Shown: positions 10,099-63,990 of the stretch, one piece after another
Position numbering within the stretch: the first letter of the stretch is position 1
How the letters are laid out: each line of letters opens with the position of its first letter
Source of the DNA: Elusimicrobiota bacterium
GTDB lineage: Bacteria; Elusimicrobiota; Elusimicrobia; UBA1565; UBA9628
DNA: 64,000 nt
Direction: 5' to 3'
Assembly: GCA_016234805.1 (NCBI GenBank)
Contig: JACRNU010000054.1
Span: 24,329 to 88,328, forward strand
Notes under the pieces: model-generated
Seen by the model: only the letters and a program-made list of their open reading frames with translations
Told to the model about the DNA's origin: nothing
The model's database searches: none
Made by a program: the position numbers and the translations under genes

Positions 10099-11783
10099 AG
10101 CGTCCGTCCCGCGCGGCCTGGCGGCAAAGGACCACCGTCCCCGAAGGCAGCGGGCAGGGGCCCGCAGTCCCCGCAGGGGGCGCTGGACGTCCTCCTTTCG
10201 CCGGAGGGGGCTGGTGGGCCTGTCTGGTCCTGGGAACCGCGGTCGCGTCCGTCTTCAGCGGGGTCCTTTCGAACGGGTTCTTCGACTTCGACGATTACGA
10301 GTGCTTCGTGGACAACCCCATGGTCCACGGCCTGGGCTGGACGCAGCTCAAGTGGATGTTCACGTCCCTGCACCTGACGGCCTATCAGCCGCTGGCCTGG
10401 CTGGCGGGCGCCCTGCTCTGGACGATCGCGGGCCCGCTGCCCGGCCCATTCCATCTGCTGAGCCTCGTCCTGCACATCGCCAACGCGATCCTGCTCTGCG
10501 TCCTGCTGTCCCGGATCCTGGAGCGGGCCGCGCCCTCGACCGAGGTCCGGGAGAGGCTGCTCGCGGCCGGAGCGGCCTCCCTCCTCTGGTCCATCCACCC
10601 CACGAAAGCCGCGGCCGTGGCCTGGGCCACCAAGGTCTCGGACCTGATGGCGGCGTTCTTCTTCCTCTGCGCATGTCTCTCCTACCTGGGGCGCGGTCAA
10701 GGCCGGAGGCCGAGCGCCCCGACCGCCTCCGAGGATGGCGTTGGCTGGTCGGGGCGCGGGCAGGAACAGGGACGGGCGTGGCGCCCCGGCATCCGGGCTT
10801 CGGCCTGGCTGTTCCTGGCCTCGGGTCTGTCGCATTGGACCGGCATCGCCTTTCCGCTGGTCCTGATCCTCCTGGATTTCTATCCGCTCAAGAGGCTCGG
10901 GGCCGATCCCGTGGGATGGTTCAAGGGGCCTTCGGCCAAGGTGTGGTTCGAGAAATGGCCTTTCCTCGCCATCGCCATAGGCCTCGCTGTCATCAACGGC
11001 CATGGCAAGGCTCAAGTCAAGGGCATCGAGCTTCTCTACGGCCTGACCCATCCCATGGAAGCGTCCCTGGCCGCGGCTTTCTATCTCCGAAAGGTCCTGT
11101 TCCCGACGGATCTCGCGGTCCTCTATGCCATCAACGGCCCCGCAAGCTCCGCGGGCCTCAATCCTGGAGCCGCGGCGCTCCTCATCCTCGTCGCGACCCT
11201 CTATGCCGCCTCGGTCTGGCGGTCCGCTCCCCTGGCCCTCGGAGGCTGGCTGTTCTGGCTCGCAGGGCTTCTTCCATCCTTCGCCTCTTCAGCCGAGGGT
11301 ATCATCTACGGACAGGATATCTATGCCTATATACCATCCATGGGCTTGGCGCTCCTGCTCGCCTGGGCCTTGTCGTCTGTCATGGGGTTCGAAGGGCCGG
11401 CCCCCTCCGGGGACCTGCCGCCCTTGCGGCAGGGCCCGCTGTCCCGGATGAAGAGGCTCCTGCTGCTCACCATGGCGCTGGGCTCGACGGCCGCTGCCTC
11501 GGCGATCTTCGTTCCGATGAGCATGCGGCAGACCGAGCTCTGGCGCGAGCCCGGAGCTGTGTGGAGGCAGACCCTTGCCGCGGACCCCGACCTGTGGATC
11601 GCGCACTACAACCTTGCCGCCCTGCTCGTGCGGCAGGGCCGCTGGGACGAGTCCAGGCCGCACTTCCAGGAGGCGCTGCGTCTGAGGCCCGGCGCAGAGG
11701 GATGGAAGGAAGACATCTCGGCCGCGCTTCGCCAAATGCCGTCTTCCTCGCCGGGGCGGAAACCGGGCGTCCCGGCGAAATGA
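10095..11783 (+). CDS. TMTC-like GT-C/TPR membrane protein (paralog 2)
   Basis: Architecture and motifs are shared with 8305-10098 (FDFDDYECFVDNP, WMFTSLHLTAYQPLAW). It carries the 57-bp repeat family near both its 5' and 3' ends, so the true start may be internal or non-ATG. Confidence 0.55.
   Translation: MKRPSRAAWRQRTTVPEGSGQGPAVPAGGAGRPPFAGGGWWACLVLGTAVASVFSGVLSNGFFDFDDYECFVDNPMVHGLGWTQLKWMFTSLHLTAYQPLAWLAGALLWTIAGPLPGPFHLLSLVLHIANAILLCVLLSRILERAAPSTEVRERLLAAGAASLLWSIHPTKAAAVAWATKVSDLMAAFFFLCACLSYLGRGQGRRPSAPTASEDGVGWSGRGQEQGRAWRPGIRASAWLFLASGLSHWTGIAFPLVLILLDFYPLKRLGADPVGWFKGPSAKVWFEKWPFLAIAIGLAVINGHGKAQVKGIELLYGLTHPMEASLAAAFYLRKVLFPTDLAVLYAINGPASSAGLNPGAAALLILVATLYAASVWRSAPLALGGWLFWLAGLLPSFASSAEGIIYGQDIYAYIPSMGLALLLAWALSSVMGFEGPAPSGDLPPLRQGPLSRMKRLLLLTMALGSTAAASAIFVPMSMRQTELWREPGAVWRQTLAADPDLWIAHYNLAALLVRQGRWDESRPHFQEALRLRPGAEGWKEDISAALRQMPSSSPGRKPGVPAK
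10152..10214. repeat. 57-bp structured repeat family, degenerate copy A (inside the 5' end of the TMTC-like gene)
   Basis: GTCCCCGCAGGGGGCGCTGGACGTCCTCCTTTCGCCGGAGGGGGCTGG aligns to the canonical unit CCTGGCGCAAGGGCGCCAGGTCCCCGGAGGGCAGATGTCCTCCGCTCCCGGAGGGGGC. Confidence 0.6.
11395..11443. repeat. 57-bp repeat family, shortened copy B (reverse orientation, inside the 3' end of the TMTC-like gene)
   Basis: The reverse complement reads CCTGCCGCAAGGGCGGCAGGTCCCCGGAGGGGGCC. It is translated in frame as PSGDLPPLRQGP. Confidence 0.65.
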
Positions 11784-23072: not shown

Positions 23073-23887
23073 GGAAAAGGGACGCGGTCCAGGTCGGCGG
23101 GACCGCGGTCATCATCCCTGCCCGGTGGGGATCCACGCGCTTCCCCGGCAAGGTCCTCGCCCTTCTCGGAGGCAAGCCCATCGTCCGGTGGTGCCACGAG
23201 GCCGCGGTCGCGTCCCGGATCGGCCCTGTGGCCGTGGCCACGGACGACCTCGAAGTCGTCCGGGCCGTGGAAGCCTTCGGAGGCCGCGCTGTCATGACCC
23301 CGAAAAACCTGGCCTCGGGCACGGACAGGGTCCTTGCGGCCCTCAAGCGGCTGCGGTGGTCCCCCCGCTTCGTGGTCAACCTGCAGGGAGACGAGCCCCT
23401 GATCTCCCCGTCGGGTTTGAGGAGCCTCGATCGCCTCCTGCGCTCCGCGGGCGCCGACGTGGCGACCCTCGTCACCCCCTTGAAGGGCGCGGAACGCCTC
23501 CAGCGGCCCGACGTGGTCAAGGCCGTCCTGGCCAAGGACGGGCGGGCCCTTTACTTCTCCCGTTCCCCTGTCCCGTACCGCCGCCAGCCCCCTCCGGCGA
23601 GAGGAGTACGGCTTTCGCCTTCGGGGACGGCGGTCCCTTGCCGCCAGGAAGAGCCCCGGCGCTGGGAGCACATCGGCATCTACGGGTACAAGGCCGCATC
23701 CCTGCGCCGCTTTGTCTCCCTTCCCCCCTCCCCGCTCGAGCGTGCCGAGTCGCTCGAACAGCTCCGGGCCCTGGAGGATGGGATGAGCATCTACGCCGCG
23801 GTGGTTCCCGCCCGCGGCGTGGCCATCGACACGCCGGCGGACCTGGCGCAAGCAGAACGACTGATACAGAAAAGAAGGAGCCCTTGA
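23069..23887 (+). CDS. kdsB: 3-deoxy-manno-octulosonate cytidylyltransferase (CMP-Kdo synthetase)
   Basis: Motifs [39 protein letters not shown] and HIGIYGY. It carries a 57-bp repeat copy in frame at 23588-23648. Confidence 0.85.
23588..23648. repeat. 57-bp repeat family copy D (reverse orientation), in frame inside kdsB
   Basis: The reverse complement reads CCTGGCGGCAAGGGACCGCCGTCCCCGAAGGCGAAAGCCGTACTCCTCTCGCCGGAGGGGG. It encodes ...[19 protein letters not shown]... in a loop that is enlarged relative to typical KdsB sequences. Confidence 0.75.
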
Positions 23888-23949
23888 TGAAACGACGAAT
23901 CGTCCCCCACGATGCTCGCCTCCCCGCGGGGGAGGCTCGCGGCATATGA
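23887..23949 (+). promoter_or_regulatory. Micro-ORF (20 codons, [20 protein letters not shown]) spanning the CCTCCCCGCGGGGGAGG hairpin; stop/start overlaps on both sides (TGATG with the kdsB stop, ATGA with the pyrG start)
   Basis: Copy 2 of the coupling cassette. It shows both nucleotide-level and peptide-level similarity to 2471-2557. Confidence 0.6.
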
Positions 23950-26504: not shown

Positions 26505-26894
26505 ATGAAATGCATGAATTGCGGGCAGGACAACAAGGACACGGCCAAGGCGTGCAGGAAGTGCGGCCGCGACCTTTCCACTCCGCCGGCGTGGTTCCCG
26601 GACGCGAAGTGGCACATGCGCACACTGGGGATCATCTACGCGTGCCTGGTGGTCCTGTACTTCGGAGTCTCCTTCCTCCTGCGAAGATTGCCCAGGCCCT
26701 ACCACATCCGCGACATCGCGCCCGAGATGACGCCCTGGCTCAAGCGGCCGGGTCTGCCCAAGCACCTGCCGGAGGAGCAGCTCAAAGCTCCGGCGAGTCC
26801 CCCGAAGCCTGTCTCGGAAGCGGGAGCCACTGGCGGCAAGGGACCGCCGTCCCCGAAGGCGCCGGACGTTCTCCTCTCGCCGGAGGGGGAGTGA
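26505..26894 (+). CDS. Zinc-ribbon (CxxC...CxxC) membrane protein; its C-terminal tail is encoded by a 57-bp repeat copy
   Basis: MKCMNCGQDNKDTAKACRKCG followed by one TM segment. The last ~25 aa (...[23 protein letters not shown]) derive from repeat copy E. Confidence 0.5.
   Translation: MKCMNCGQDNKDTAKACRKCGRDLSTPPAWFPDAKWHMRTLGIIYACLVVLYFGVSFLLRRLPRPYHIRDIAPEMTPWLKRPGLPKHLPEEQLKAPASPPKPVSEAGATGGKGPPSPKAPDVLLSPEGE
26828..26890. repeat. 57-bp repeat family copy E
   Basis: CACTGGCGGCAAGGGACCGCCGTCCCCGAAGGCGCCGGACGTTCTCCTCTCGCCGGAGGGGGA, the reverse complement of copy D. Confidence 0.75.
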
Positions 26895-29400: not shown

Positions 29401-29477
29401 CTGCTCCCCTTCAGGGGGCCTGGCGCAAGGGCGCCAGGTCCCCGAAGGGCAGGCGTCCTCCGCTCCCGGAGGGGGCC
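29401..29477. repeat. 57-bp repeat family copy F (canonical form) between convergent genes; it encodes the C-terminal tail of the minus-strand metalloprotease
   Basis: CCTGGCGCAAGGGCGCCAGGTCCCCGAAGGGCAGGCGTCCTCCGCTCCCGGAGGGGGCC, preceded by a CCCCTTCAGGGGG mini-hairpin. Confidence 0.8.
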
Positions 29478-47857: not shown

Positions 47858-49399
47858 TTGGTAAAATCTCCCTTCCAACCAACGATGAAGACCCTTTTCC
47901 TCAACCCCCCCTCATTCTCGGGATTCGATGGCGGAGCAGGGTCGAGGTTCCAGGCCCGGCGCGAAGTCCGGTCTTTCTGGTATCCGACCTGGCTGGCCCA
48001 GCCCGCGGCCCTTATCCCGGACTCCAAGCTCGTGGACGCCCCGGCTGACGGCCTGACCGTGGAGGACGCAGCCCGGATGGCGGCAGGCTACGAGCTGTGC
48101 GTCATGCACACCTCCACGCCTTCCTTCGACAACGACGTGAAGGTCGCGGAGCTCCTCAAGCAGCGCTACCCGGGCATCATGGTCGGGTTGGTGGGCGCTC
48201 ACGTGGCGGTCCTGCCCGAGGAGTCCCTCAAGGCCTCGTCCGCGGTGGATTTCGTGGCCCGCGAGGAGTTCGACTATTCCCTGCGCGAGGTGGCCCTGGG
48301 CGAGCCCCTGGACAAGGTCCGGGGCTTAAGCTGGCAGAAAGACGGCCGCATCCGCCACAACCCGGACCGCGAGCTCATCGCGGACATGGACGAGCTTCCG
48401 AGCGTGCTCGATGTCTACAAGCGCGACCTCACCGTCGAGAACTACTACATCGGCTACCTCAAGCACCCCTATCTCTCGCTCTACACGGGCCGCGGGTGCC
48501 CGAGCCGGTGCACCTTCTGCCTCTGGCCGCAGACCGTGGGCGGGCACGTCTACCGCACCCGCTCTCCTGAGAGCGTCATCGGGGAGATGGCTCGGGCCAA
48601 GACCCTCTTCCCGCAGGTCAAGGAGTTCTTTTTCGACGACGACACCTTCACCGCGGACCTCGAGCGCGCGGCCGCCATCGCCCGGGGCCTCGGGCGGCTG
48701 GGGATCATGTGGTCCTGCAACGCCCGGGCGAACGTCCCCTTCGAGTACCTCAAGATCTTCAAGGAAGGCGGGCTGAGGCTCGTGGTCGTGGGCTACGAGT
48801 CGGGCAACCAGGCCATCCTCAACAACATCAAGAAGGGCATCCGCGTGGACATCGCCCGCCGGTTCACCAAGGACTGCCGCAAAGTGGGCGTCGCGGTGCA
48901 CGGGACCTTCATCTTGGGCCTGCCCGGCGAGACCCCTGAGACCATGGATGAGTCCCTGCGCTTCGCCTGCGACCTGGACATGGACACCATCCAGGTCTCC
49001 CTGGCCGCACCCTACCCAGGGACCGAGCTCTACCGCCAGGCCATGAAGAACAAGTGGTTCGACGAGAACTCCCTGGTGCGCAACGACGGCACCCAGGGCT
49101 GCACCCTGCAGTACCCGCACCTTCCTTCCGCGGCCATCACCGCGGGCGTGAAGCGCTTCTACAGCCGGTTCTACGGCAGGCCCAAGCCCATCCTGCGCAT
49201 GCTCGTGAAGATGGCGCTCGACCCCGAGGAGCGGCGCCGCAGGCTCCGCGAGGGCAAGGAATTCCTGAGCTACCTGCGCGGCCGCGACGGGTGCGAGTGC
49301 CTGGCGCAAGGGCGCCAGGTCCCCGGAGGGCAGACGTCCTCCGCTCCCGGAGGGGGCGAGGCTCAAAGACGCGTCGAGAAAGAGGGCGTCGATGCTTGA
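47858..49399 (+). CDS. hpnJ: B12-binding radical SAM protein, HpnJ-like (hopanoid side-chain cyclitol ether formation)
   Basis: MKTLFLNPPSFSGFDGGAGSRFQARREVRSFWYPTWLAQPAA N-terminus. B12-binding and radical SAM core with an unusual CxxxxCxxC spacing (CPSRCTFC). The C-terminal ~30 aa are encoded by 57-bp repeat copy G. Confidence 0.65.
   Translation: MVKSPFQPTMKTLFLNPPSFSGFDGGAGSRFQARREVRSFWYPTWLAQPAALIPDSKLVDAPADGLTVEDAARMAAGYELCVMHTSTPSFDNDVKVAELLKQRYPGIMVGLVGAHVAVLPEESLKASSAVDFVAREEFDYSLREVALGEPLDKVRGLSWQKDGRIRHNPDRELIADMDELPSVLDVYKRDLTVENYYIGYLKHPYLSLYTGRGCPSRCTFCLWPQTVGGHVYRTRSPESVIGEMARAKTLFPQVKEFFFDDDTFTADLERAAAIARGLGRLGIMWSCNARANVPFEYLKIFKEGGLRLVVVGYESGNQAILNNIKKGIRVDIARRFTKDCRKVGVAVHGTFILGLPGETPETMDESLRFACDLDMDTIQVSLAAPYPGTELYRQAMKNKWFDENSLVRNDGTQGCTLQYPHLPSAAITAGVKRFYSRFYGRPKPILRMLVKMALDPEERRRRLREGKEFLSYLRGRDGCECLAQGRQVPGGQTSSAPGGGEAQRRVEKEGVDA
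49300..49357. repeat. 57-bp repeat family copy G (canonical), in frame at the 3' end of hpnJ
   Basis: CCTGGCGCAAGGGCGCCAGGTCCCCGGAGGGCAGACGTCCTCCGCTCCCGGAGGGGGC encodes ...LAQGRQVPGGQTSSAPGGGEA... Confidence 0.8.
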
Positions 49400-53995: not shown

Positions 53996-55289
53996 GGCTT
54001 CGGCCGCTTCCAAGACCTTGGAGGCGGCACTAGGCCGGTTCATCCGGCCGTCGGCCGGCTCCGCCCTGGACGAGCGGCGCACCACCTATTTCGCGTTCCA
54101 GGGCCTGCTCATGGCGGTCCTGCTGCTCATCTTCCTCACCCATCGTCCTGACGCGTCCTCCTGGCTTCCCCGATTCGCTTTCCTGATGACCTTCCTGAGC
54201 GGGTCGCTCGTGGCCCTGCGCCTGACCCCTGCTCCACTGCTGGCGACCTGGAGGTTCCAGGTCGGGCTCTTCCTGGGGGACGCGGTCCTGGCCACCGTGG
54301 CCCTGGCCTGGGCCAAGCCCCTCGCTGAGCTCTACCTGATCTTCCTCCTCATCATCTTCGGGGCAGCCCTGACCCGAAGCCTCGGCCAGAGCCTGATCAT
54401 CGCCACGGTGGTTTCCTTCCTCTACCTGGCCGCGGGCTGGAGGCCGAACCGCGGCCTGCCGCACGACGCCGGGTTCTGGGTCCAGTTCATGTTCCTGTGG
54501 GTGCTCTCCGCGCTCCTGGCCGTGCTTTCGCGCGACGTGGCGCGGGCCCAGGCCTTCCGGGAGCGCAAGCTGCGCGACCAGGTCGTGGAGGCTGAGCGCC
54601 TATCGAGCCTGGGCCGCCTCTCCGCCGAGGTGGCCCATCGCATCAAGGGGCCTCTGACCACCATCATGGTCAACGCGGACCTGCTGGCCGCGGAGCTCTC
54701 GGGCTCGAAGAAGGTGGTCGCGGACCTCCGCCAGATCCAGGAATCGGCGCGCCACTGCAAGGAGATCCTCAAGTCCCTGCTGGACCTCGGCCGCATCGAG
54801 GAGATGGACCGCATTCCCATGGACCTGGGCAGGGCCGCTGCCTCGGCCGTGGAGTCCATCGAGGCCCAGGCCCGGAAAAAGGGCGTCCGCCTCCGAACAG
54901 AGGGCCTCGAAGGCGAATTCCCCATGCTGGGGGACCCGGCGCTCCTCCGCGAGGCTGTCTGCGCCGTGCTCCAGAACGCGCTGGAGTCCGCGGCCAAGGG
55001 CGGCCGGGTCGCGCTCGCGCTCAAGCGGCGGCTCGGCGCGCTGGAGTGGGTGGCCATGGCCGCTGGAGGGTGCTATGTCCTGGAGGTTTCGGATGACGGG
55101 CACGGCATCGCTTCCGATATCATGAGCCGCATCTTCCAGCCCTTCTTCACCACCCGCAAGGGGGGCTCCGGCCTCGGCCTCTCCTCTGCCCTGCGCATCC
55201 TGCAGAAGCACGGCGGGAGCATCGAGGTCGAGAGCGACGGCCCGGGCAGGGGAGCGGTCTTCAGCCTGATCCTGCCCCGGCCGACCTAA
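53982..55289 (+). CDS. Membrane sensor histidine kinase
   Basis: About 6 N-terminal TM segments, an H-box LSAEVAHRIKGPLTTI and HATPase_c (GHGIASDIMSRIFQPFFTTRKGGSGLGLS). Confidence 0.8.
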   Translation: MSVFRASAASKTLEAALGRFIRPSAGSALDERRTTYFAFQGLLMAVLLLIFLTHRPDASSWLPRFAFLMTFLSGSLVALRLTPAPLLATWRFQVGLFLGDAVLATVALAWAKPLAELYLIFLLIIFGAALTRSLGQSLIIATVVSFLYLAAGWRPNRGLPHDAGFWVQFMFLWVLSALLAVLSRDVARAQAFRERKLRDQVVEAERLSSLGRLSAEVAHRIKGPLTTIMVNADLLAAELSGSKKVVADLRQIQESARHCKEILKSLLDLGRIEEMDRIPMDLGRAAASAVESIEAQARKKGVRLRTEGLEGEFPMLGDPALLREAVCAVLQNALESAAKGGRVALALKRRLGALEWVAMAAGGCYVLEVSDDGHGIASDIMSRIFQPFFTTRKGGSGLGLSSALRILQKHGGSIEVESDGPGRGAVFSLILPRPT

Positions 55290-55400
55290 CGACCATAGGG
55301 CCGGCCGGGACCGTCGGCCTCCGGCCTGGACCCGGCCCCGGCCGGCCTGACGGCCCCTATGGCCGGCCGGGACGGTCGGCCTCCGGCCTGGACCCCGCCC
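55290..55400. repeat. Tandem ~54-bp direct repeat (2 copies), GC-rich, between convergent genes
   Basis: GGCCGGCCGGGACCGTCGGCCTCCGGCCTGGACCCGGCCCCGGCCGGCCTGACGGCC repeated with 4 mismatches. Confidence 0.7.
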
Positions 55401-56184
55401 CGGCCAGCCTGACCCCGCTCCGGGCCAGGCACTCGCGGACCCGCGGGCTGGTCAGGGCCAGGAACTCGGCGTAGGAATGATGGGTCGAAGTCGGGCCGTG
55501 TTCGGCCTTGGCTTCCGGGTCCGCGGTGGGGTGCAGGTAGATCTCCGTCAACCCGCCTGGAAGGCGGGGGATGAGCCAGAGCAGGTAGTCCTCGGTCATC
55601 ATGCCGGACCGCAGAAGGCCCAGGGTCCGGTCCGGCACGGTGAGCCCGGCTTGGGCGGCCGAGCGTCTCATCCAGGCCCCGAGAGCCCCGAAGACGCAGC
55701 CGAGAGCGAGCGCGGCCGCGGCGCCGCGGCCGCCGAACCCGGCCCTGAGAAGGACCTCCCCCCCGGTCAAGCGCACCCGCGGGATGCCGTGCCGCAGGGC
55801 CGCCCGGACGACCATGGGGAAAACAGTGGGGTGGACGTGCGCGTTGAGGTGGCTGTCGAGGTGCGTGGGCTTGATGCCGAAGGAGAGGCACAGCCGCACC
55901 TGGCTCTCGATCTCGCTTTCGATCCCCCGGCCCCTGTTCAGGAAGGAGGCCAGGCCCCAGGCCGGCGCCGACCCGGAGCAGAGCTCGAGGTGCACCCCGA
56001 CCCCGAGCCCAGGATTGGCGCGTGCGACGCGGACCGCGTCGCGGACCGCGCTCCCGCGGACCATGAGGCTTGCGAATCCGAGGACCCCGTCCCGGTGGGC
56101 CCGCTCGACCGCGTCATTGAGTCCCGGGGAGCCCCCGAAGTCGTCCGCGCTGACGATGAGCGTGGCCGCGCCGGCCTGGCTCAA
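55357..56184 (-). CDS. hpnK: YdjC/ChbG-family carbohydrate deacetylase (HpnK-like)
   Basis: Motifs LIVSADDFGGSPGLNDAVERAHRDGVLGFASLMV and VGVHLEL. It overlaps (ATGA) the pseudopilin-like gene upstream. Confidence 0.55.
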   Translation of the reverse strand: MSQAGAATLIVSADDFGGSPGLNDAVERAHRDGVLGFASLMVRGSAVRDAVRVARANPGLGVGVHLELCSGSAPAWGLASFLNRGRGIESEIESQVRLCLSFGIKPTHLDSHLNAHVHPTVFPMVVRAALRHGIPRVRLTGGEVLLRAGFGGRGAAAALALGCVFGALGAWMRRSAAQAGLTVPDRTLGLLRSGMMTEDYLLWLIPRLPGGLTEIYLHPTADPEAKAEHGPTSTHHSYAEFLALTSPRVRECLARSGVRLAGAGSRPEADRPGRP

Positions 56185-56570
56185 GGGGTCGTTCCAGGGA
56201 GGGGCTGGGTGAACGAAGCCGTCACCAGGCAGGGGCCTAACGTATCGTCGGCGGTGACGGTCGGGTAAAAGGTATCGGCGGGGGTGGCGCTGCAGGTGCA
56301 GGAGCAGACGCCGGGCGTGCCCGTGCAGTCGTAGGAGATCGCGCCGGTCCCCGTCAGGTTCGCGTCCGAGCAGACCGCCTGCTGTTCGCTCCAGAAGGAG
56401 AGCAGGAGGGAGAAGGCCATTTCGTCGTATTTCTCCCCCTTGTTCCCGTAAGCCGTCCGGTGGATGAGCTGGTACTGCATGAGCACGATGCTCATCATGC
56501 CCGCGGCCAGCATGGCCATGATCGCGCCCGTGATCAGGACGTGGACCATCACCGACCCTCGCTGGTTCAT
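56181..56570 (-). CDS. GspK-like / minor pseudopilin-like Cys-rich small protein
   Basis: Hydrophobic N-terminal helix RGSVMVHVLITGAIMAMLAAGMMSIVLM with 8 Cys in the C-terminal half. It is the last gene of the pilin operon. Confidence 0.35.
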   Translation of the reverse strand: MNQRGSVMVHVLITGAIMAMLAAGMMSIVLMQYQLIHRTAYGNKGEKYDEMAFSLLLSFWSEQQAVCSDANLTGTGAISYDCTGTPGVCSCTCSATPADTFYPTVTADDTLGPCLVTASFTQPLPGTTP

Positions 56571-56577: not shown

Positions 56578-57234
56578 TCAATCCGACCCGAAGTACTGCC
56601 TGTTCGACCGGAGGAAGGTGTCGACCTTGAGGCTGACGGGGACCGGGATGGTGGCCGCGGCGCCCGTGGCCGGGCGGGTGCCGCTGCCGACCGCGAAATG
56701 CATCTCGATGCCGTCCCCGCGGTTCCTGAAGATGGGCGGCGACGAGGTGAGGTCCTCGTCGCGATAGTGGAAATTCCTGACCAGCACCGTGGTGTTCCCC
56801 CCGAGGATGCAGCCGCCCCCGTTAGGGATGCTGGCCGGGCAATTGAGGCCCGGTCCGACGACCGCGATGCGCAGAAGGGCGGGCATGCCCCCGCCGATGT
56901 CGGGGCTCCGGCAGTAGTAGAACGCGGTGACGTTCAAGCTCGTGTTGAGGCGGCCCTCACCCAGGCTGGTGAATTGCAGGGGCGAGAAATTGACGCACCC
57001 GCCGAGGCCGTCTCCCGTGGCGCCGTGGGCGGGGACGTTGATGAACGAGGCTTCCTCGATCTCCTGGCTCATCTGCTCAAGGGCCATGATGGTCCATCCG
57101 CTCACCTCCCCCTTGAGGCTCGTGTCCACGTGGCTCCTCAGGAGGGAGGCGAACACGGTCATGAGGGCGACGAGGACCGCGGAGCTCAGGCTCAGGGCAA
57201 GGAGCAGCTCGATGAGGGTGAACCCCTGGCGCAA
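56578..57234 (-). CDS. Minor pseudopilin with a G|FTLIELLLAL prepilin cleavage site; its 5' end and leader lie inside the 57-bp tandem repeat array
   Basis: ...LAPLRQG|FTLIELLLALSLSSAVLVALMTV. There is no ATG. The candidate start is TTG at 57234 (MRQG|FTLIE) or an upstream CTG. The same frame stays open through all four repeat units. Confidence 0.55.
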   Translation of the reverse strand: MRQGFTLIELLLALSLSSAVLVALMTVFASLLRSHVDTSLKGEVSGWTIMALEQMSQEIEEASFINVPAHGATGDGLGGCVNFSPLQFTSLGEGRLNTSLNVTAFYYCRSPDIGGGMPALLRIAVVGPGLNCPASIPNGGGCILGGNTTVLVRNFHYRDEDLTSSPPIFRNRGDGIEMHFAVGSGTRPATGAAATIPVPVSLKVDTFLRSNRQYFGSD

Positions 57235-57472
57235 GGGCGCCAGGTCCCCGGAGGGCAGATGTCCTCCGCTCCCGGAGGGGGCCCGGCGCAAGGGCGCCAG
57301 GTCCCCGGAGGGCAGATGTCCTCCGCTCCCGGAGGGGGCCCGGCGCAAGGGCGCCAGGTCCCCGGAGGGCAGATGTCCTCCGCTCCCGGAGGGGGCCCGG
57401 CGCGGGGGCCCGGCGCAAGGGCGCCAGGTCCCCGGAGGGCAGATGTCCTCCGCTCCCGGAGGGGGCCCGGCG
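57225..57472. repeat. Tandem array of four 57-bp repeat units (canonical family sequence), the fourth with an 11-bp insertion
   Basis: CCTGGCGCAAGGGCGCCAGGTCCCCGGAGGGCAGATGTCCTCCGCTCCCGGAGGGGGC x4. The unit is 19 codons, so every frame repeats (e.g. RRAPSGSGGHLPSGDLAPL on the minus strand). There are no spacers, so this is not a CRISPR array. Confidence 0.85.
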
Positions 57473-57473
57473 T

Positions 57474-57986
57474 TTACGGTTCGGTCCAGTCGACATAGAC
57501 CTCCACTCGAGGGATCTGCGCGCCGGAAAGGCCTCCTGCTCCGAAAGGGTGCATCTGGGTGACGACGTAGCGCATGGTGGCGTTGTAGGGCGGGCCGCTG
57601 AACCAGATGGGGAGCATCCCGGTGATGGTGTGCGTGCCCAGCGCGAGGGCGTTGGCGGCGCCCATGCTGTCGGTGATGGTCGCGGCGTCGTACCCGTCGT
57701 TCGGGGCTTTGGCGCCGTTGATGGACCAGTTGGTGGAGGCGGAGGTCCCGCTGGACGGCCCGCGGAAGCCGATGTCGATGGGGGCCTGCGTGGTATCGCC
57801 GGAGACGTAGCCCTTGAGCTTCTCCGACAGCTGGCGCGAAACCTGGTTCGCGACGAGGCGGCGCATGGAGCGTCCCGAGCCCTGGCGGGCGGTGATGGCC
57901 ACGCTGAAGACAGAAGACGTGATGACCGCCACGAGCATCATGGCGATGGTGACCTCGAGGAAAGTCGAACCGCGTTCCTTGTCCAT
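57474..57986 (-). CDS. Minor pseudopilin (GspI/J-like)
   Basis: MDKERG|STFLEVTIAMMLVAVITS has a prepilin-type leader with Glu at +5. Its stop abuts the repeat array. Confidence 0.6.
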   Translation of the reverse strand: MDKERGSTFLEVTIAMMLVAVITSSVFSVAITARQGSGRSMRRLVANQVSRQLSEKLKGYVSGDTTQAPIDIGFRGPSSGTSASTNWSINGAKAPNDGYDAATITDSMGAANALALGTHTITGMLPIWFSGPPYNATMRYVVTQMHPFGAGGLSGAQIPRVEVYVDWTEP

Positions 57987-58001: not shown

Positions 58002-58517
58002 TTATAATCCCGTCACCGAGGGCGGGTTCGTTCCGATCGCTTCGATCCCGCCGTTGGTGTCCACCGCGAAGCCCCAGGTGTTGTAATCCCCGGACGTGCT
58101 TTTTCGCGTCGCGCAGGCCACCCAATTCCGGCTGGAAAAGGTCTTGCCGCCGCAGGATGACGTCACGCTCCCGTTGGCCGCGTCGAACCGGTACTTCTCG
58201 CCGTCCCAATTCTGCGAGGATATGTATTTGCACTTGACCAGGTCGCAGCCGTCGGCCGCCCCGCCCGTGGGACAGGCGGTCCCGTTGCAGGAGCTCGTCA
58301 GCTGGCCCGCCCGCAAGGTGGTCTGGTTGAGGTCCATGCTCGCCATGCGGTTGGCGGCGGCGAGCGTGCGCACCGTGGCGATGGCATTGTCGGCCCTGGT
58401 CGATTCCATGGCCCTCAGGTATTGGGGGATGCCGTACGCCGCGAGGATGCCGATGAGAGTGACCACGACCACGAGCTCGATGAGGGTGAATCCGGCGGGC
58501 GAGGGTCTTCGCGCCAT
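58002..58517 (-). CDS. Major type IV pilin / GspG-like pseudopilin
   Basis: MARRPSPAG|FTLIELVVVVTLIGILAAYGIPQY is a classic class-III signal. C-terminal Cys pairs (CNGTACPTGGAADGCDLVKC...SSCGGKTFSSRNWVAC) resemble type IVa pilin disulfide loops. The start was taken at the ATG at 58517. Confidence 0.8.
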   Translation of the reverse strand: MARRPSPAGFTLIELVVVVTLIGILAAYGIPQYLRAMESTRADNAIATVRTLAAANRMASMDLNQTTLRAGQLTSSCNGTACPTGGAADGCDLVKCKYISSQNWDGEKYRFDAANGSVTSSCGGKTFSSRNWVACATRKSTSGDYNTWGFAVDTNGGIEAIGTNPPSVTGL

Positions 58518-58583
58518 GTTCCTATTCCTCCGGCCGTCCCCTTCATAGTATGCCTCCGGCATCTGTGCGACATGAGGGCGGCC

Positions 58584-58609
58584 TGTGTGCAAGTTGTGAA
58601 TCATTTCGC
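58584..58609. promoter_or_regulatory. 18-mer TGTGTGCAAGTTGTGAAT in the pilin upstream region (shared with the two-component operon promoter)
   Basis: 17/18 identity to 53229-53246. It lies between the gspF stop and the pilin start. Confidence 0.45.
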
Positions 58610-59827
58610 CCCCAGGGAGGACATCTTGAAGATGGGCAGGAACACGGCCAGCACGATGGTGCCGACGATGAGGCCGATGCCGACGACCATGATGGGCTCG
58701 ATGATGGCCGTGAACCTCCGGGTGAACTGCTCGATCTGCTCGCGGTAGAAGCCCGAGAGGGTCACGAGCATCTCGGGGAGCTTGCCGGACTCTTCTCCCA
58801 TGAACATCATCTCGGTCACCAGCGGAGGGAGGACGCCGGTCTTCTTGAACGCTCCGGAGATGGATTTGCCGCTCGCCACGTCGTTGCGAACCATGCGCAG
58901 GAAGCGCTGGAACATGACGTTGGTGGCGAAGACCCCCTCGAGCACGGTGATGGTGTTGAGGATGCTCACGCCGCTCTCGATGAGGGCCGACATGGTCGTG
59001 AGCAGGCGCTCGACGAGGATGTTCATGATGAACTGGCCGAAGAAGGGGACCTTGAAGGTGAGGGACCATTTCGTCACGTTGCCGGCTTCCGTCGAGGTGT
59101 AGGCCCTCCAGACGAACCCCGAGCCGACGAGGACGAACACGAGGGCCGCGAAGTGGTGCACCATGATGTCCGAGATCAGGACGATGGCCTTGGTCAGGGG
59201 CGGGAGCTGGACTCCGAACTGCTTGAAGATGTCGGAGAAGACCGGCACGATCTTCACGATGAAGAAGGTGAGCACGCCCATGGAGATGAAGAACAGGATG
59301 CCCGGGTACGCCAGGGCGGTGATGACCTTGGCCTTGAGTTCCGACTGGGCCGCGAGGTAGGCGCCGATCTGCTTGAGGGATTTCGGGAGCTGGCCGCCCA
59401 TCTCTCCGGCCTGCACCAGGGAGACCCAGAGGGTGTCGAAGGCCTTGGGGTGCTTCTCGAGCGCCTTGTACAGGGCGGTCCCGCTGGCCACGTCCTTCGT
59501 GACCTGGCCGACCGCGATCTGCAGGCCCTTGGAGCTCGAGTGCTCGCCCAGGAGCGAGAGGGCGCGCACCAGGGGCACGCCGCCGTTGAGGAGGGTGGCC
59601 AGCTGCTCCGCGAAGAAGACGAGGTCGCGCTCGGCGACCCCGGCGGAGCTGACCGCCGCGCCCTTGCCCGACAGCGAGGAGCGGGCGCTCTTGTCGGACG
59701 AGATCGACAGGATGAAGTAGCCCTTGCCCTGGAGGACGCCGATCGCGTCGTTCTCGTCGTTGGCCTCGAGCGAGCCGGAGATGGTCTCTCCCTTGCTGTC
59801 CTGGACCGTGTACGCGAAGCGTGCCAT
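58601..59827 (-). CDS. gspF: Type II secretion / type IV pilus inner-membrane platform protein (GspF/PilC family)
   Basis: 408 aa with two T2SSF repeats (LATLLNGGVPLVRALSLL..., LTTMSALIESGVSILNTITVL...) and 3 TM segments. Confidence 0.9.
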   Translation of the reverse strand: MARFAYTVQDSKGETISGSLEANDENDAIGVLQGKGYFILSISSDKSARSSLSGKGAAVSSAGVAERDLVFFAEQLATLLNGGVPLVRALSLLGEHSSSKGLQIAVGQVTKDVASGTALYKALEKHPKAFDTLWVSLVQAGEMGGQLPKSLKQIGAYLAAQSELKAKVITALAYPGILFFISMGVLTFFIVKIVPVFSDIFKQFGVQLPPLTKAIVLISDIMVHHFAALVFVLVGSGFVWRAYTSTEAGNVTKWSLTFKVPFFGQFIMNILVERLLTTMSALIESGVSILNTITVLEGVFATNVMFQRFLRMVRNDVASGKSISGAFKKTGVLPPLVTEMMFMGEESGKLPEMLVTLSGFYREQIEQFTRRFTAIIEPIMVVGIGLIVGTIVLAVFLPIFKMSSLGAK

Positions 59828-59834
59828 GGTTCTC

Positions 59835-61583
59835 CTAGTCCGCCAACGTGATGGACATGATCTCTTCGACCGTGGTGAGGCCCCGGATGACTTTGCGCCA
59901 GCCGCTCGCGCGCAGGCTCAGCTTGCCGAGCTTGTCCGCCACGGAGCGCAGGCGGGTGAGGTCGCCGCCGTACTTGTAGATGATATCCTTCATCTCCCGC
60001 TCCATGGGGTAGACCTCGAGGATGGCTTTGCGGCCTCCGTAGCCGGTGCGCGCGCACTTGTCGCAGCCCTTCTCTTTGTAGAACATGAGCGTGTCGAGGT
60101 CGGGCTGGTCCTCGGGCTTGAGCATCGCCTGCTCGACGACCATCTTGGCCTCGTCGGCCTCGGGCTTGTAGGGCTTCTTGCAGAGGGGGCAGAGCACGCG
60201 CACGAGGCGCTGCGCCGCGGCGAGTATGAGGCTGCCCGAGAGGAGGAACGGCTCGATGCCGAGGTCGATGAGGCGCACCACGGTCGAGAGGGCGTCGTTG
60301 GTGTGCAGGGTGGAGAGCACGAGGTGGCCGGTGAGGGCCGCGCGCAGGCAGGTCTGGGCGGTCTCCTGGTCGCGCACCTCTCCGACCAGGATGACGTCCG
60401 GGTCCTGCCGCAGGAAGGAGCGCAGAGCGGCCGCGAAGGTGAGCCCGATGGCGGCGCGCACCTGGACCTGGTTGATGCCCTCGAGCTTGATTTCGACGGG
60501 GTCTTCGATGGTCATGAAGTTGAGCTCGGGGGTCTTGATGGTGTTGAGGACCGTGTTGAGGGTGGTGGTCTTGCCCGATCCGGTCGGGCCGGTCAGGAAG
60601 ATGAGCCCGTGCGGCATCGCCGCGCACTTGAGGAAGTCCTCCTTCTGCTCGGGCTCGAGGCCGATCTTGTCGATGTTGAGCTCGACCGCCCCCTTGTCGA
60701 GCAGGCGCATGACCAGCTTCTCGCCGTAGACGGTGGGGCAGATGCTGACGCGCAGGTCGATGATCCTGTTCTGGATCTTCATCGAGAAGGTGCCGTCCTG
60801 GGGCAGGCGCCGCTCCGCGATGTCGAGCTTGGAGAGGATCTTGAACCTGGACACGACCGGGCTGAAGAGGGACTTCGGCGGCGGCATGCGCTCGTAGAGA
60901 CAGCCGTCGATGCGGAAGCGCAGCATGACGCGCTCGTCGTAGCACTCGAGGTGGATGTCCGAGCACCTCTCGGCCACGGCCTGCTTGAGGATGGCGTTGA
61001 CGAGCGCGACCGGGTGCGCGTCCTGGCCGCCGCCGGAGGTGTCCTTGTCGAGGTCGAGCTTCACGTCGGCGTCCGGCATCTCCTCGGCCGCCTCGGTCGT
61101 GGCCGACTGCTTGTCCATCGTCTTCTCGATGATCTCGCGTCCCCCGGCCTGGTAGAACTCGTCGATGGCCTTGATGATCTGGGTCTTCGTCGCGACGAAG
61201 GGCTGGACCTCCCGGCTGGTGAGGAGCTTGAGGTTGTCCATCATGACCATGTTGTCGGGGTTGACCACGGCCACGGCGATGACCCCTTCGTCGAGGAACA
61301 GGGGGAGGACCAGGTTGTCCCGGGCGAAGGACTCGGTGATGAGCTTCTCGAGGCCCTGGCCCTTCTCGGCCTTGAGGATCTTGTTCTCCTTGGAGGCGTA
61401 GGGGACCCCGATCTGCTTGGACATCGCGACCGCGATGTCCTCTTCGGTCGCGAACCCCAGCTTGATGACCGCTTCGGCGAACTGACACCGCGCCTGCTGC
61501 GCGGTCTTGAGGGCTCTCGAGTGCTGCTCCTCGTTGAGGACATTGCCCTGAAGCAGTATCTGGTCCAAGGTCAGCTTCTGCAT
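59835..61583 (-). CDS. gspE: Type II secretion / type IV pilus assembly ATPase (GspE/PilB family) with an N-terminal N1E/MshEN-like domain
   Basis: Walker A LIFLTGPTGSGKTTTL, Asp box, Walker B, His box and a tetracysteine motif (CPLCKKPY...CDKCARTGY). The N-terminal domain is paralogous to the C-terminus of the 41148-42326 protein. Confidence 0.9.
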   Translation of the reverse strand: MQKLTLDQILLQGNVLNEEQHSRALKTAQQARCQFAEAVIKLGFATEEDIAVAMSKQIGVPYASKENKILKAEKGQGLEKLITESFARDNLVLPLFLDEGVIAVAVVNPDNMVMMDNLKLLTSREVQPFVATKTQIIKAIDEFYQAGGREIIEKTMDKQSATTEAAEEMPDADVKLDLDKDTSGGGQDAHPVALVNAILKQAVAERCSDIHLECYDERVMLRFRIDGCLYERMPPPKSLFSPVVSRFKILSKLDIAERRLPQDGTFSMKIQNRIIDLRVSICPTVYGEKLVMRLLDKGAVELNIDKIGLEPEQKEDFLKCAAMPHGLIFLTGPTGSGKTTTLNTVLNTIKTPELNFMTIEDPVEIKLEGINQVQVRAAIGLTFAAALRSFLRQDPDVILVGEVRDQETAQTCLRAALTGHLVLSTLHTNDALSTVVRLIDLGIEPFLLSGSLILAAAQRLVRVLCPLCKKPYKPEADEAKMVVEQAMLKPEDQPDLDTLMFYKEKGCDKCARTGYGGRKAILEVYPMEREMKDIIYKYGGDLTRLRSVADKLGKLSLRASGWRKVIRGLTTVEEIMSITLAD

Positions 61584-61659
61584 ACTTGAAGTATAACTCC
61601 ATGGCGGGGAATGTTCAAGAGGAAATGTAACATATCATCGGCGGCTAGCCGCCGATGGG

Positions 61660-61712
61660 GGTGCCTGGCTTGGGCCTGACCAAGTCACCCCGGTTCAAGC
61701 CTGGCACCCGGG
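61660..61712. repeat. Hairpin repeat GGTGCCTGGCTTGG-N-CAAGCCTGGCACC (family copy 3) between gspD and gspE
   Basis: Same arms as 4914-4970 and 5607-5660. Confidence 0.75.
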
Positions 61713-61723
61713 ACATCGTACGG

Positions 61724-63412
61724 CTAGTCGCCGACGATCGTAGGCGTGATGAAGATGACCAGGTCGGAGTTCTTCCTGCGGGTGCTGCTCGAGGTGAACA
61801 GCCACCCGATGAGAGGGATGTAGCCGAGGAACGGGACCTTGCGTACCACCTTGTTCTCGGTGGATTGCAGAAGTCCGCCGAGCACCAGGGTCTGCCCGTT
61901 CTTGACCCGGACCAGGGTGGAGGCCCCCCTGGTGATCGGGTCGAAGATGCGCTTGGCCGAGGAGGAGATGGCGGACTCCTGAGCGTCCGTGAAGGAGGGT
62001 TGGACGAGCATGGTGATGTAGCCCTCCTTGTTGATCTGGGGAGTGACCTTCAGGATAAGCCCGGTCGTGACGCGCTCCACCGTGACGGAGGCCGTGCCCA
62101 GGCCGGAGCCCGAGGACGCGCTCTGCTGTTGGGTGGCCACGGCCGCGTTCCGAGCAATCTGGATGATGGCCGGCTTGTTGTTGAGGGTGAGCACCTTGGG
62201 CTTGCCGAGGAAGCGTGCCTCGGAACGGCTGACCAGGGCCCTAAGCACGACCTTGAGCATGGTGAGGTCGAAGATGCCGTTGGTCAGGGCTCCAGTGCCC
62301 GGGACCGTGACCGGGAAGGGAGAGGAGGTCTCAGCGGCGGCTTGGGACGTCCCTGTGGCTTCGCCATCGGCTCTCGCGACGCTCCCGGTGGTGAACGGGT
62401 CGAAGAAATGCGTGTTGCCCATCTTATTTGGGAGGTTGAGAGGGAACGAGACGTCGCGCTTTCCCGCGGTGAAGCTCGCGAGCTCGCCTCCCGCGCCGCC
62501 CCACTCGAAGCCCAGCTCCCGGGCGCGGTCCGAGTTGATCTCCACGATCTGCGCCTCGATCATGACCTGCGGGGTCTTCTTGTCGAGCTCGGCGATGATC
62601 TGCTCGACCTGGGGGAAGGACTCCGGGATGTCCGTGACGATGATCGAGTTGGTCCGAGGCTCGATCGCGATCGAGCCATTGGTCTTGCTGAGCACGCTCT
62701 GGATGACCTTGACGATCGCGACCTCTCCCCCGCCGCCGGTCGAGCCTCCGCCCGCAAGACTGGCGACGCTCGACACCGGCGTGATGGAGGCTTGCTCGGA
62801 CTCGGCGCTGCCCAGGGCGATGAGAGGGACATAGGCCAGGGTGTAGATGCGGGTGATCACGGGCTCGGCGGCCTTGGAGCGCGGGGCGATGACGAAGGTG
62901 TTGCTCTTGCCGATCTGCTGGTAGGTCAGGCCCTTGATCTCGAGCAGGATCTGCAGGGCCTCGCGCACGGTGACGTTCTGCAGGAAGGCCGTGATCTGCT
63001 TGGTCTCCAGCCCTTCGGTGATGATGAAGTTGACCTTGGACTGGGCGGAGATGGTGTCGAGGAAGGTCGCCAAAGGCGCCCCTTTCACGCGGACCGTGAC
63101 GCGCGTCTCGAGCGGATTGAGCGGCGAGGCCGGGGCGGCCTTCGACGGCGCGGCCGCTCCGATCTGGATGCCGCCGACCGCGGGACGGGCGACGGCTTCG
63201 GGCTCGGCGCCCGGCGGCGGTCCCTCGTCGGTGGGGACGCCCAGGGGGCCGGCCTCCGACGCCGGGGAAGCCTGCGTCCCCTTGAACTCGGGGTTGGCCA
63301 CGGGCTCCTCGCGCCGCCTCTGCGCGAACCCCGGGCCGGCCGAGGAAAGGATGATCTGGACAGCGATGGTGATCGCGCTGATGCGTTTCGCGATGCTCTT
63401 GATTGTCATCAT
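61724..63412 (-). CDS. gspD: Secretin (GspD/PilQ family outer-membrane channel)
   Basis: Signal peptide MMTIKSIAKRISAITIAVQII, N-domains and the C-terminal secretin domain (...VRVKNGQTLVLGGLLQSTENKVVRKVPFLGYIPLIGWLF...VIFITPTIV). The start was taken at the ATG at 63412. Confidence 0.85.
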   Translation of the reverse strand: MMTIKSIAKRISAITIAVQIILSSAGPGFAQRRREEPVANPEFKGTQASPASEAGPLGVPTDEGPPPGAEPEAVARPAVGGIQIGAAAPSKAAPASPLNPLETRVTVRVKGAPLATFLDTISAQSKVNFIITEGLETKQITAFLQNVTVREALQILLEIKGLTYQQIGKSNTFVIAPRSKAAEPVITRIYTLAYVPLIALGSAESEQASITPVSSVASLAGGGSTGGGGEVAIVKVIQSVLSKTNGSIAIEPRTNSIIVTDIPESFPQVEQIIAELDKKTPQVMIEAQIVEINSDRARELGFEWGGAGGELASFTAGKRDVSFPLNLPNKMGNTHFFDPFTTGSVARADGEATGTSQAAAETSSPFPVTVPGTGALTNGIFDLTMLKVVLRALVSRSEARFLGKPKVLTLNNKPAIIQIARNAAVATQQQSASSGSGLGTASVTVERVTTGLILKVTPQINKEGYITMLVQPSFTDAQESAISSSAKRIFDPITRGASTLVRVKNGQTLVLGGLLQSTENKVVRKVPFLGYIPLIGWLFTSSSTRRKNSDLVIFITPTIVGD

Positions 63413-63438
63413 GATGTCTCCCTTGGTGCCGCCGTCCG

Positions 63439-63990
63439 TCACTGCATGCGCTTCAAGAATGCCTTGCCCTTGTGCGTGAAAGTCACTCCTGTCTGGGAGA
63501 TCTTCAGGACCTTGATCCCCGAGTTCCCGATCCACTCGCCTTCGCTGTACATGTCGTTGTTGATGATGGCTTTGTTGCCTTCCGGCGTGGTCACGATGCC
63601 CTGCAGGCTGAGGGTCTGCTCGACGGGCTTGTCTCGCTGGACCTTGGCCCGGAGCGCCTGCTCTTCGACCTCTTTGCGTTTGATGAGCTTCTCGAGCTCC
63701 TCCTGTTCGAGGAGGAACTGGTCGTAGGGGGAAAGCAGGGGATCGCGCCAATCCACGGCCACGAGGTCCGCGGTGCTCACCGCGATTTCCGGGGCCTGCG
63801 GCGGGGCCGGCGTCGCCAGGGACGCGGTCGAGGCCGGAGGCCGAGCGTCCCCGCCGCCCTCAGGCATGGCGTTGGCGGACGGGGGCGCGGGGGTCACGGC
63901 GCCGGAGGCGTCGACCGGGGCCGGGTCGGACGGGGCGGCCGCGTCCACCACGGCGGCCGCTGTCTGGGAGGCGGTCTCCGTGCTGACCAC
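63439..63990 (-). CDS. Ala/Pro-rich protein with a PilP/GspC-like C-terminal beta domain; possibly 5'-truncated by the window edge
   Basis: The C-terminal ~70 aa (LQGIVTTPEGNKAIINNDMYSEGEWIGNSGIKVLKISQTGVTFTHKGKAF) resemble secretin-binding pilot domains. The listed ORF reaches to within 10 nt of the window end. Confidence 0.35.
   Translation of the reverse strand: MVSTETASQTAAAVVDAAAPSDPAPVDASGAVTPAPPSANAMPEGGGDARPPASTASLATPAPPQAPEIAVSTADLVAVDWRDPLLSPYDQFLLEQEELEKLIKRKEVEEQALRAKVQRDKPVEQTLSLQGIVTTPEGNKAIINNDMYSEGEWIGNSGIKVLKISQTGVTFTHKGKAFLKRMQ

Follow-up and report, generated by a model that had tools for sequence, protein, structure and literature searches.

The stretch of DNA analysed here (the window; 64,000 nucleotides (nt) of contig JACRNU010000054.1 from the Elusimicrobiota assembly GCA_016234805.1) carries on its minus strand a gene for a minor pseudopilin whose 5' region is occupied by a perfect tandem repeat array. 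The mature coding part of this gene (56578..57222, from FTLIELLLAL... to the stop TGA 56580-56578) is intact. A homologue search of 5.8 billion proteins returned only the pseudopilin itself and three orthologues, 58-64% identical to it and all from Elusimicrobia metagenome-assembled genomes (MAGs). The textbook prepilin cleavage site recognised earlier from the letters alone, RQG↓FTLIELLLAL (the arrow marks the cleavage), was confirmed by scores above the cut-offs of both Pfam N_methyl (23.8 bits vs 21.2) and TIGR02532 (22.6 vs 16.3). Gly-1, Phe+1, Glu+5 and a hydrophobic stretch are all present in RQG↓FTLIELLLALSLSSAVLVALMTVFA. The codons for RQG↓FTLIELLLAL occupy 57231-57190, that for Phe+1 being 57222-57220. 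In addition, the gene lies among genes for filament machinery, in an operon with the same gene order as the three orthologous loci (L001, L003 and L005).

The array extends over 57228-57472 on the minus strand, where Tandem Repeats Finder (TRF) reported a period of 57 in 3.1 copies and a period of 70 in 2.0 copies, both at 100% identity. An earlier reading of this DNA without database searches (the sequence-only reading) had described it as four copies of 57 bp, the last of which encodes the pseudopilin leader and whose number could tune translation initiation or leader length. The four 57-nt units are indeed 100% identical to one another, but the array is not a clean 4 x 57, as one extra 13-nt partial unit follows unit 1. 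Read along the minus strand, its structure is a'-b-a-a-b-a-b-a-b-a'', with b being 44 nt long and a being GCGCCGGGCCCCC; the two perfect tandem copies of GCGCCGGGCCCCC found by TRF lie at 57391..57416 and the a-a junction reads ...GGGCCCCCGCGCCGGGCCCCCTCC.... Each unit consists of an invariant core, CCCCCTCCGGGAGCGGAGGACATCTGCCCTCCGGGGAC (57428-57465, 57358-57395, 57301-57338 and 57244-57281, minus strand), and then a hairpin, C-CTGGCGC-CCTT-GCGCC(G/A)G-G. The array begins 5 nt past the stop TAA (57476-57474) of the upstream 170-aa gene and its 3' end runs straight into CGC CAG GGG ↓ TTC ACC CTC ATC GAG, encoding R-Q-G↓F-T-L-I-E. The last unit does supply the codons L-A-P-L-R-Q-G before the cleavage site, as had been proposed, and the gene as assembled needs a non-ATG start.

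The pseudopilin frame contains no ATG upstream of the mature part and stays open back to 58233. This openness, which had been taken as a feature of the array, is uninformative on coding, because the unit is free of stop codons in all six frames; so are 8% of random 57-mers of the same composition. Moreover, unit 1 is in another frame than units 2-4, due to the extra 13-nt partial unit that follows it. The proposed equivalent start in every unit thus exists in three of them only, as in-frame TTG codons at 57234 (giving M-R-Q-G↓F), 57291 and 57348, with further in-frame CTG codons at 57243 and 57258 also present as proposed. Leaders from these codons would be 4 aa (TTG 57234), 7 aa (CTG 57243) or 23 and 42 aa (the other TTGs in the repeat) long. 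The NCBI model of the protein (P0001, MBI5883101.1, 256 aa) starts at TTG 57348 (57346..57348, minus strand), which, like its equivalent at 57291-57289, shares the context of TTG 57234.

A different start became apparent when the orthologous loci were compared. The orthologues have leaders of 7-11 aa (MWIGRNRSRGG↓FTLVE, MGEASRHG↓FTLIE and MSPKRRG↓FTLVE). In all three loci, as in the window, the upstream protein ends in ...V(E/D)VYVDW(T/D)EP, followed by the stop codon, and the codons GTC T-ATG-T.. of the upstream gene hold an ATG that is preceded by a GGAGG/GAGGTGGA motif. In L001 this ATG is the annotated pseudopilin start, overlapping the upstream gene by 23 nt, and it is likewise in frame with the pseudopilin in L005 and L003. 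The window retains it at the conserved position as GGAGG (57504-57500), TCT and ATG (57496-57494), spanning 57494..57504 on the minus strand, again inside the last codons of the upstream gene (...VEVYVDWTEP and stop) with an overlap of 23 nt and the GGAGG 3 nt upstream. Removing exactly 57228..57468 in silico (minus strand; 241 bp, 4x57+13) gives ATG TCG ACT GGA CCG AAC CGT AAA CGC CAG GGG TTC..., that is MSTGPNRKRQG↓FTLIE in a 225-aa protein. The distance from ATG to GAG is then 48 nt, the same as in L001, and the leader is colinear with MWIGRNRSRGG↓FTLVE. Since this removal restores an orthologue-like leader that starts with ATG and has the spacing of L001, the comparison establishes, at the level of sequence, that ATG 57496 is the ancestral pseudopilin start and that the array is an insertion into the leader codons between the ancestral Shine-Dalgarno (SD) sequence and ATG and the Gly-1 codon. 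L001 and L005 have an empty site where the window has the array, this being the one empty site examined. A leader within the described range of 6-26 aa and with a recognisable start is thus obtained only once the 241-bp insertion is removed (the 11-aa MSTGPNRKRQG).

The statement that the gene has no in-frame ATG therefore holds for its present frame only, as an SD-preceded ATG stands upstream of the array and is out of frame because 241 is not a multiple of 3 (241 mod 3 = 1). ATG 57496 reads unit 1 in the amino-acid frame of units 2-4, and the 13 nt alone break the frame. As assembled, the ORF from the ancestral ATG (57077..57496, minus strand) encodes 139 aa: unit 1 is read as RRAPSGSGGHLPSGDLAPLRRAP, and the frame then shifts at the 13-nt junction, to give MSTGPNRKRRAPSGSGGHLPSGDLAPLRRAP followed by APGPLRERR.... 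When either 13-nt copy alone is removed, a single ORF of 301 aa extends from ATG 57496, MSTGPNRKR(RAPSGSGGHLPSGDLAPLR)x4 QG↓FTLIE, with a leader of 87 aa (11 + 4x19). Programmed +1 frameshifting was considered as a way of joining the two frames, and no slippery or stall site was apparent at or after the 13-nt junction. We also dropped the idea that the junction is a chimera from microhomology-mediated duplication, as the same context, GCGCCAGGCCCCC, is found at the unrelated copy at 29414.

The closest orthologous locus, L003, carries a different insertion of 60 nt (within 3932-4024) at the same spot of the leader, after MSTGRNRSRG and before G↓FTLIE. A hairpin, CACCTCCCC-GTG-GGGGAGG(C)G, is part of this insertion, and the conserved ATG at 3932 is in frame through it, for a leader of 31 aa, although GTG 4001 is the annotated start. 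The possibility that this insertion is a decayed copy of the 57-nt repeat was rejected, as its alignment scores were no better than those of shuffled sequences (z about 0). The leader-coding spot may be a recurrent insertion site.

The repeat unit is dispersed well beyond the pseudopilin locus. When the unit was matched to the window, two single copies with 1-4 mismatches appeared (29414-29477 and 49295-49358), and 6-8 matches were observed in the window vs 0 in 100 shuffles. nhmmer added a truncated copy at 11399-11439 and diverged ones at 23587-23648, 26836-26889 and 10165-10211, so that the family has seven loci in the 64-kb window, the array and six others. A pattern built on the core, CCCCCTCCGG(N)GARNGGAGNAC-N6-14-CGGGGAC, had eight matches in the window and 35 more, at 33 loci, in nine other MAGs of a species-representative genome collection. 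Nearly all of these are Elusimicrobia MAGs from groundwater, and they include the genomes that carry L003 (13 loci) and L005. One match, L024 3941-4001, is on a contig binned as Gemmatimonadaceae and has no more than a 4-bp stem after CGGGGAC in place of the usual hairpin; it could stem from an error in binning, from a transfer between lineages, or from a match that is decayed or due to chance. In L031, another tandem array of the family (2.1 units, period 57) ends 12 nt before the ATG of the next gene, and its presence at another gene junction suggests that tandem amplification of the family is recurrent. A search of the array against Rfam gave only noise (E of 2 or more, far under gathering scores) and the limited literature search brought up nothing specific, hence the family appears to be undescribed. 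Exact look-ups of the window proteins, and exact and degenerate DNA scans with the array unit and the conserved upstream junction, gave no matches in sequence collections.

The single copies in the window illustrate where the element resides. That at 29414..29477 (minus strand, 94% identical) forms the last 21 codons (APSGSGGRLPFGDLAPLRQAP and stop) of a 620-aa metalloprotease-like ORF, and that at 49295..49358 (minus strand, 98% identical) lies antisense in the C-terminal tail of HpnJ (47858-49399, plus strand), past the end of the HpnJ profile. The copy at 11399..11439 (plus strand), truncated by a 24-nt deletion between CCCTCCGGG direct repeats, is in frame in a 562-aa membrane protein (...APSGDLPPLRQGP...) and has a compensatory change in its hairpin stem (CCTGCCGC/GCGGCAGG). 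The ORF of this membrane/TPR protein (10095-11783, plus strand) harbours a second copy, the diverged one at 10165..10211 (minus strand), antisense at its 5' end, and its annotated N-terminus may for this reason be spurious. Two diverged copies belong to a subfamily 2: one at 23587..23648 (plus strand, nhmmer), the other at 26836..26889 (minus strand) at the 3' end of ORF 26505-26894 (plus strand). Two stretches of the window, 23073-23945 and 26895-27480, have no ORF supported by the GC content of third codon positions (GC3); the first holds a subfamily-2 copy and the second starts right after the other one.

Outside the window, where gene calls are our own and based on GC3, about 26 of the 35 copies fall inside long GC3-supported ORFs. 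They do so in both orientations, and often with hundreds of codons on either side. The host proteins are unrelated to each other, and their Pfam domains flank or span the element. It is found between the transglycosylase and transpeptidase domains of a PBP1C, within the GAF match of a GAF-PAS protein and within the domain match of a TMEM260-like mannosyltransferase, as well as in a caspase-domain protein, an S1-domain protein and a carbamate kinase, where it lies within a segment inserted relative to the solved enzyme, PDB 1e19. The intragenic copies examined in sense orientation all share one frame, APSG-x-GG-x-x-PSGD..., which is the frame that ATG 57496 gives to unit 1. If translated, the element would contribute peptides such as APSGSGGHLPSGDLAPLR and AQGRQVPGGQ...SSAPGGG to its hosts. 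Some insertions are old, because the copy in the HpnJ tail is shared by two species, being also present at the orthologous position in L022, whose HpnJ is 91% identical. In these two copies (window 49295-49358 and L022 7169-7226) the 38-nt core is 100% identical, far better conserved than expected of neutral DNA between genomes whose pseudopilins are only 58% identical, and the L022 copy has two pair-breaking changes in the 5' arm of its hairpin.

We found that the element has a constant and a variable part. It is 57 nt long in the array (57-61 nt in the family), has about 75% G+C, and consists of a nearly invariant core of 38-41 nt (CCCCCTCCGG-GAG-GGAG-AC...CGGGGAC) and a GC-rich hairpin whose stem sequence differs between copies. 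Two hairpins form when the unit folds. The first (hairpin 1), CCUCCG-GGAG-CGGAGG, holds an SD-like GGAGG, and hairpin 2, C-CUGGCGC-CCUU-GCGCCAG-G, directly follows the invariant CGGGGAC. A perfectly paired stem of 5 bp or more stands at the position of hairpin 2 in 40 of 42 distinct copies, and its sequence takes 26 different forms. In an ungapped alignment of 32 distinct copies, double compensatory changes occurred in seven of the eight pairs; 85.9% of cells were paired vs 58.2% in shuffles (0/500), and the covariation score was 0.599 vs 0.205 in shuffles and at most 0.155 in slid controls. Left of the core, a direct repeat (at least 7 nt) of the copy's own hairpin 3' arm was found in 10 of 39 loci vs 3.4% in cross-locus controls, and in L014 the whole hairpin is repeated there. 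This flanking repeat may be a target-site duplication or a partial tandem unit. No terminal inverted repeats were seen in the aligned copies. The presence of copies in both orientations relative to host genes argues against a cis-acting regulatory motif at the RNA level, and for a DNA-level element or for persistence independent of orientation.

The signals in front of the pseudopilin look different in this light. Hairpin 2 of the last unit (CCTGGCGC-CCTT-GCGCCAGG; 57225..57244, minus strand; about -17 kcal/mol) encodes L-A-P-L-R-Q-G and holds both CTG 57243-57241 and TTG 57234-57232, and each codon of the CTG 57258 type is preceded by GGAGG-ACAT. Windows of 60 nt around the candidate TTG and CTG starts have predicted folding energies of -25 to -35 kcal/mol vs -16.1 +/- 5.2 kcal/mol (range -4 to -28) for thirty reference ATG starts in the window. 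To judge by their conservation across the family, the GGAGG, TTG and CTG are parts of the hairpins of the element and not evolved initiation signals. Both the TTG start in the annotation and the open frame follow incidentally from an element without stops in any of the six frames.

The remainder of the type-4-filament/type II secretion system-like operon lies upstream of the pseudopilin gene on the minus strand (58002..63751), with a secretin (61724-63751), a GspE-like ATPase (59835-61583), a GspF-like platform protein (58601-59827) and the major pseudopilin (58002-58517; MARRPSPAG↓FTLIE). Besides these, the operon contains the gene studied here and two minor pseudopilin-like genes, both with atypical prepilin-like N-termini and no other family match. 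The upstream one (57474..57986, minus strand, 170 aa) begins MDKERG↓STFLEV, has Ser at +1 and is under the Pfam threshold, and ORF 56181-56570 begins MNQRG↓SVMVHV and lacks Glu5. Nearby, between convergent histidine-kinase and YdjC genes, an unrelated tandem repeat occupies 55274-55413 (period 62, 2.3 copies, 88% identical); in L001 these two genes overlap without a spacer. The core of this repeat (29-31 nt, about 90% identical) also occurs in L019, L023 and L009, with three copies in L019, two of which form a perfect 63-bp tandem (L019 1-133). Together with the 57-nt family, this repeat brings the interspersed families with tandem arrays in the lineage to at least two. A further tandem repeat, with a 54-bp unit (4.9 copies, 97% identical) and no sequence relationship to the 57-nt family, lies at L036 1495-1761 in another Elusimicrobia MAG.

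Our combined findings suggest that the array is an amplified short repeat of one Elusimicrobia lineage, comparable to Rickettsia palindromic elements (RPEs) or to mycobacterial interspersed repetitive units (MIRUs), which was inserted into the cleavable leader of a pseudopilin gene that is now frameshifted or poorly initiated. We consider this account probable, and in our best reading the array is an accidental insertion and not a proven regulatory switch. Prepilin leaders are hydrophilic and cytoplasmic, end at Gly-1, are removed by prepilin peptidase and tolerate lengths of 6-26 aa (PMC4471445). The element behaves like selfish DNA that survives wherever translation can pass through it, and it is found in loops, linkers and termini of unrelated proteins in either orientation. 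The leader is a permissive site of this kind because it stays cytoplasmic and is cut off. One copy landed in the leader codons between the SD and ATG 57496 and the Arg-Gln-Gly↓Phe cleavage site, and would then have been amplified locally to four units, recently to judge by their identity. The original insertion was presumably in frame with ATG 57496, because this ATG reads unit 1 in the APSGSGG...PSGD frame of every sense intragenic copy seen. The extra 13 nt would be a later, frameshifting lesion, or else an assembly or minority variant. In the gene as assembled, ribosomes that load at the ancestral start would make the 139-aa out-of-frame product, and the pseudopilin would be made poorly or not at all, because the in-frame TTG and CTG codons lack a proper SD and lie within a stable hairpin. 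The pseudopilin gene may be dead, it may have weak expression from a TTG in the array, or, with the 13 nt as an assembly or minority variant, it may be in frame in the living population.

Several observations weigh against this account. The body of the pseudopilin is undamaged and can be read in frame from three TTG codons, so low-level initiation there is possible; at -25 kcal/mol, TTG 57234 still falls just within the range of real starts. The assembly is a short-read MAG consensus, in which the unit number, the 13-nt junction and the frameshift may not represent the living population. The element has no terminal inverted repeats and has flanking direct repeats in just 10 of 39 loci; no transposase or other mobilising function was identified in the window, to which that search was confined, and its putative mobility is deduced from its distribution and one empty site. 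Finally, the gene calls that place it inside genes of related loci are our own.

If the 13 nt were an assembly error or a minority variant, the real array would be n x 57, with ATG 57496 in frame and a functional gene whose 87-aa leader is removed by prepilin peptidase. This would agree with the intact ancestral SD and ATG, with the 301-aa ORF that appears when either 13-nt copy is deleted, with the frame that ATG 57496 shares with all sense intragenic copies, with the in-frame presence of the element in functional-looking genes elsewhere, and with L003, whose conserved ATG is in frame across a different 60-nt insertion in the same place. Identical repeats that are longer than a read are also hard to assemble. 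However, De Bruijn assemblers seldom invent junctions, and some reads should carry the a-a junction. Furthermore, an 87-aa leader is without precedent among described leader peptides of 6-26 aa (PMC4471445), and we regard this alternative as rather unlikely. It is improbable, in our view, that a TTG or CTG in the array starts the pseudopilin and that unit number tunes initiation or leader length in a phase-variation-like manner, as the sequence-only reading had proposed. The required codons do exist in frame, those of the CTG 57258 type behind GGAGG-ACAT, and NCBI annotates one of the TTGs; the perfect identity of the units implies recent and possibly ongoing change in copy number, and a second array of the family is known from another genome. 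Nonetheless, the TTG, CTG and GGAGG are conserved within an element of lineage-wide distribution that occurs both ways round in unrelated genes, the candidate codons are sequestered in hairpins that are more stable than the surroundings of real starts, and the start of the orthologues is a conserved upstream ATG with its SD, a start still present here on the far side of the insertion. Nor can changes in unit number act as a frame switch, as 57 nt are 19 codons (3x19), and the sequence gives phase variation no positive support.

The 13-nt partial unit could itself be a switch, with its gain and loss reversibly connecting and disconnecting the pseudopilin and the ancestral start. The duplication at 57391-57416 is a perfect tandem, the loss of one copy restores the ATG-initiated ORF, and short tandem duplications revert at high frequency. 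Against this, the partial unit is known from a single locus in a single assembly, none comparable was seen in the other 39 loci of the family, and the ON state would bear the 87-aa leader, making such a mechanism highly improbable. A more far-reaching view is that the element represents a novel type of mobile in-frame repeat, with a hairpin that is rebuilt from the target at each insertion, which survives in disposable or flexible protein segments (cleaved leaders, tails, linkers) and which, through its 57-nt steps and the 13 nt, forms a reversible switch of leader length and of ON and OFF states for this minor subunit of a type-4 filament. Rebuilding of the hairpin from the target would explain both the perfect, copy-specific stems and the recurrence of the 3' arm to the left of the core, but we attach little probability to this view as a whole.

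Compared with known systems, the insertion we favour has a close parallel in the RPEs, short dispersed hairpin repeats that are often in frame in unrelated genes and are translated with the host protein (PMC10969869). The 57-nt element is likewise dispersed in many copies, hairpin-forming and frequently in frame inside unrelated coding genes, the frame of which it leaves unbroken, being a multiple of 3 and stop-free. Unlike RPEs, which are about 100-150 bp, AT-rich and found in obligate intracellular Alphaproteobacteria, it comes from groundwater Elusimicrobia, is 57-61 nt long and has a G+C content of about 75%; it also differs in being stop-free in six frames, in its residence in both orientations, in its copy-variable terminal hairpin and in forming tandem arrays, and no sequence kinship is expected. 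MIRUs, a class of variable-number tandem repeats with 40-100-bp units in a GC-rich genome, form tandem arrays at operon junctions and start codons with an open frame that passes ribosomes (PMC12548453). The array in the window (between stop 57474 and Phe+1 57222) and that in L031 are similarly at junctions of co-oriented genes. However, MIRUs are intercistronic and have a small internal ORF coupled to the downstream start by a -4 overlap, whereas most copies of the element are intragenic and fused in frame, and its unit, having no stop codon, does not allow such coupling. The array with its 13-nt extra in fact breaks the link to the start instead of preserving it.

Similarities to other classes are more limited. 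Repetitive extragenic palindromic (REP) sequences and bacterial interspersed mosaic elements (BIMEs) are extragenic, have a 5' tetranucleotide of the GTAG type and family-specific stems, and are mobilised by REP-associated tyrosine transposases (RAYTs; Y1/HUH). They share with the element short GC-rich hairpins after a conserved motif, many copies per genome and occasional clustering, but the element is mostly intragenic, has CGGGGAC and not GTAG before the hairpin, and has 26 stems among 42 copies; RAYTs were searched for in the window only. Of the two marks of classical miniature inverted-repeat transposable elements, terminal inverted repeats were not seen in its aligned copies, and target-site duplications may be present as the direct repeats that flank the core in 10 of 39 loci. 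In contingency loci the units are 1-7 nt long, or of a length not divisible by 3, and changes in their number alter the frame or promoter spacing. The array resembles them as a perfect repeat tract at the 5' end of a surface-filament gene, yet its unit is 57 nt (19 codons) and belongs to a genome-wide repeat family, and only the 13-nt partial unit shifts the frame. Neither an internal promoter nor an intrinsic terminator was predicted in or beside the array, and no T-run follows its hairpins. Among prepilins, those of type IVb have long leaders that are likewise hydrophilic cytoplasmic extensions ending in Gly-1, but a repeat-extended leader would measure 30 aa with one unit or 87 aa with four, beyond any described and well above the 7-11 aa of the orthologues.

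Thus, the simplest explanation of the apparent repeat-encoded leader and its non-ATG start is an annotation effect of a stop-free selfish repeat that parts a gene from its real start, and the deposited 256-aa model MBI5883101.1 probably has an incorrect N-terminus. Repeats of this kind inflate and distort the proteins predicted from MAGs, in which they can create or destroy starts and C-termini. Spanning at least nine Elusimicrobia MAGs, the family leads an RPE-like life in coding sequence, but in a free-living, GC-rich and uncultivated lineage, and it shows unusually clear hairpin covariation and occasional tandem amplification. Of the two, the repeat family is of greater interest than the pseudopilin: the family constitutes a natural data set on the protein segments that tolerate insertions of 19 residues, of which the cleavable prepilin leader is one neat example.

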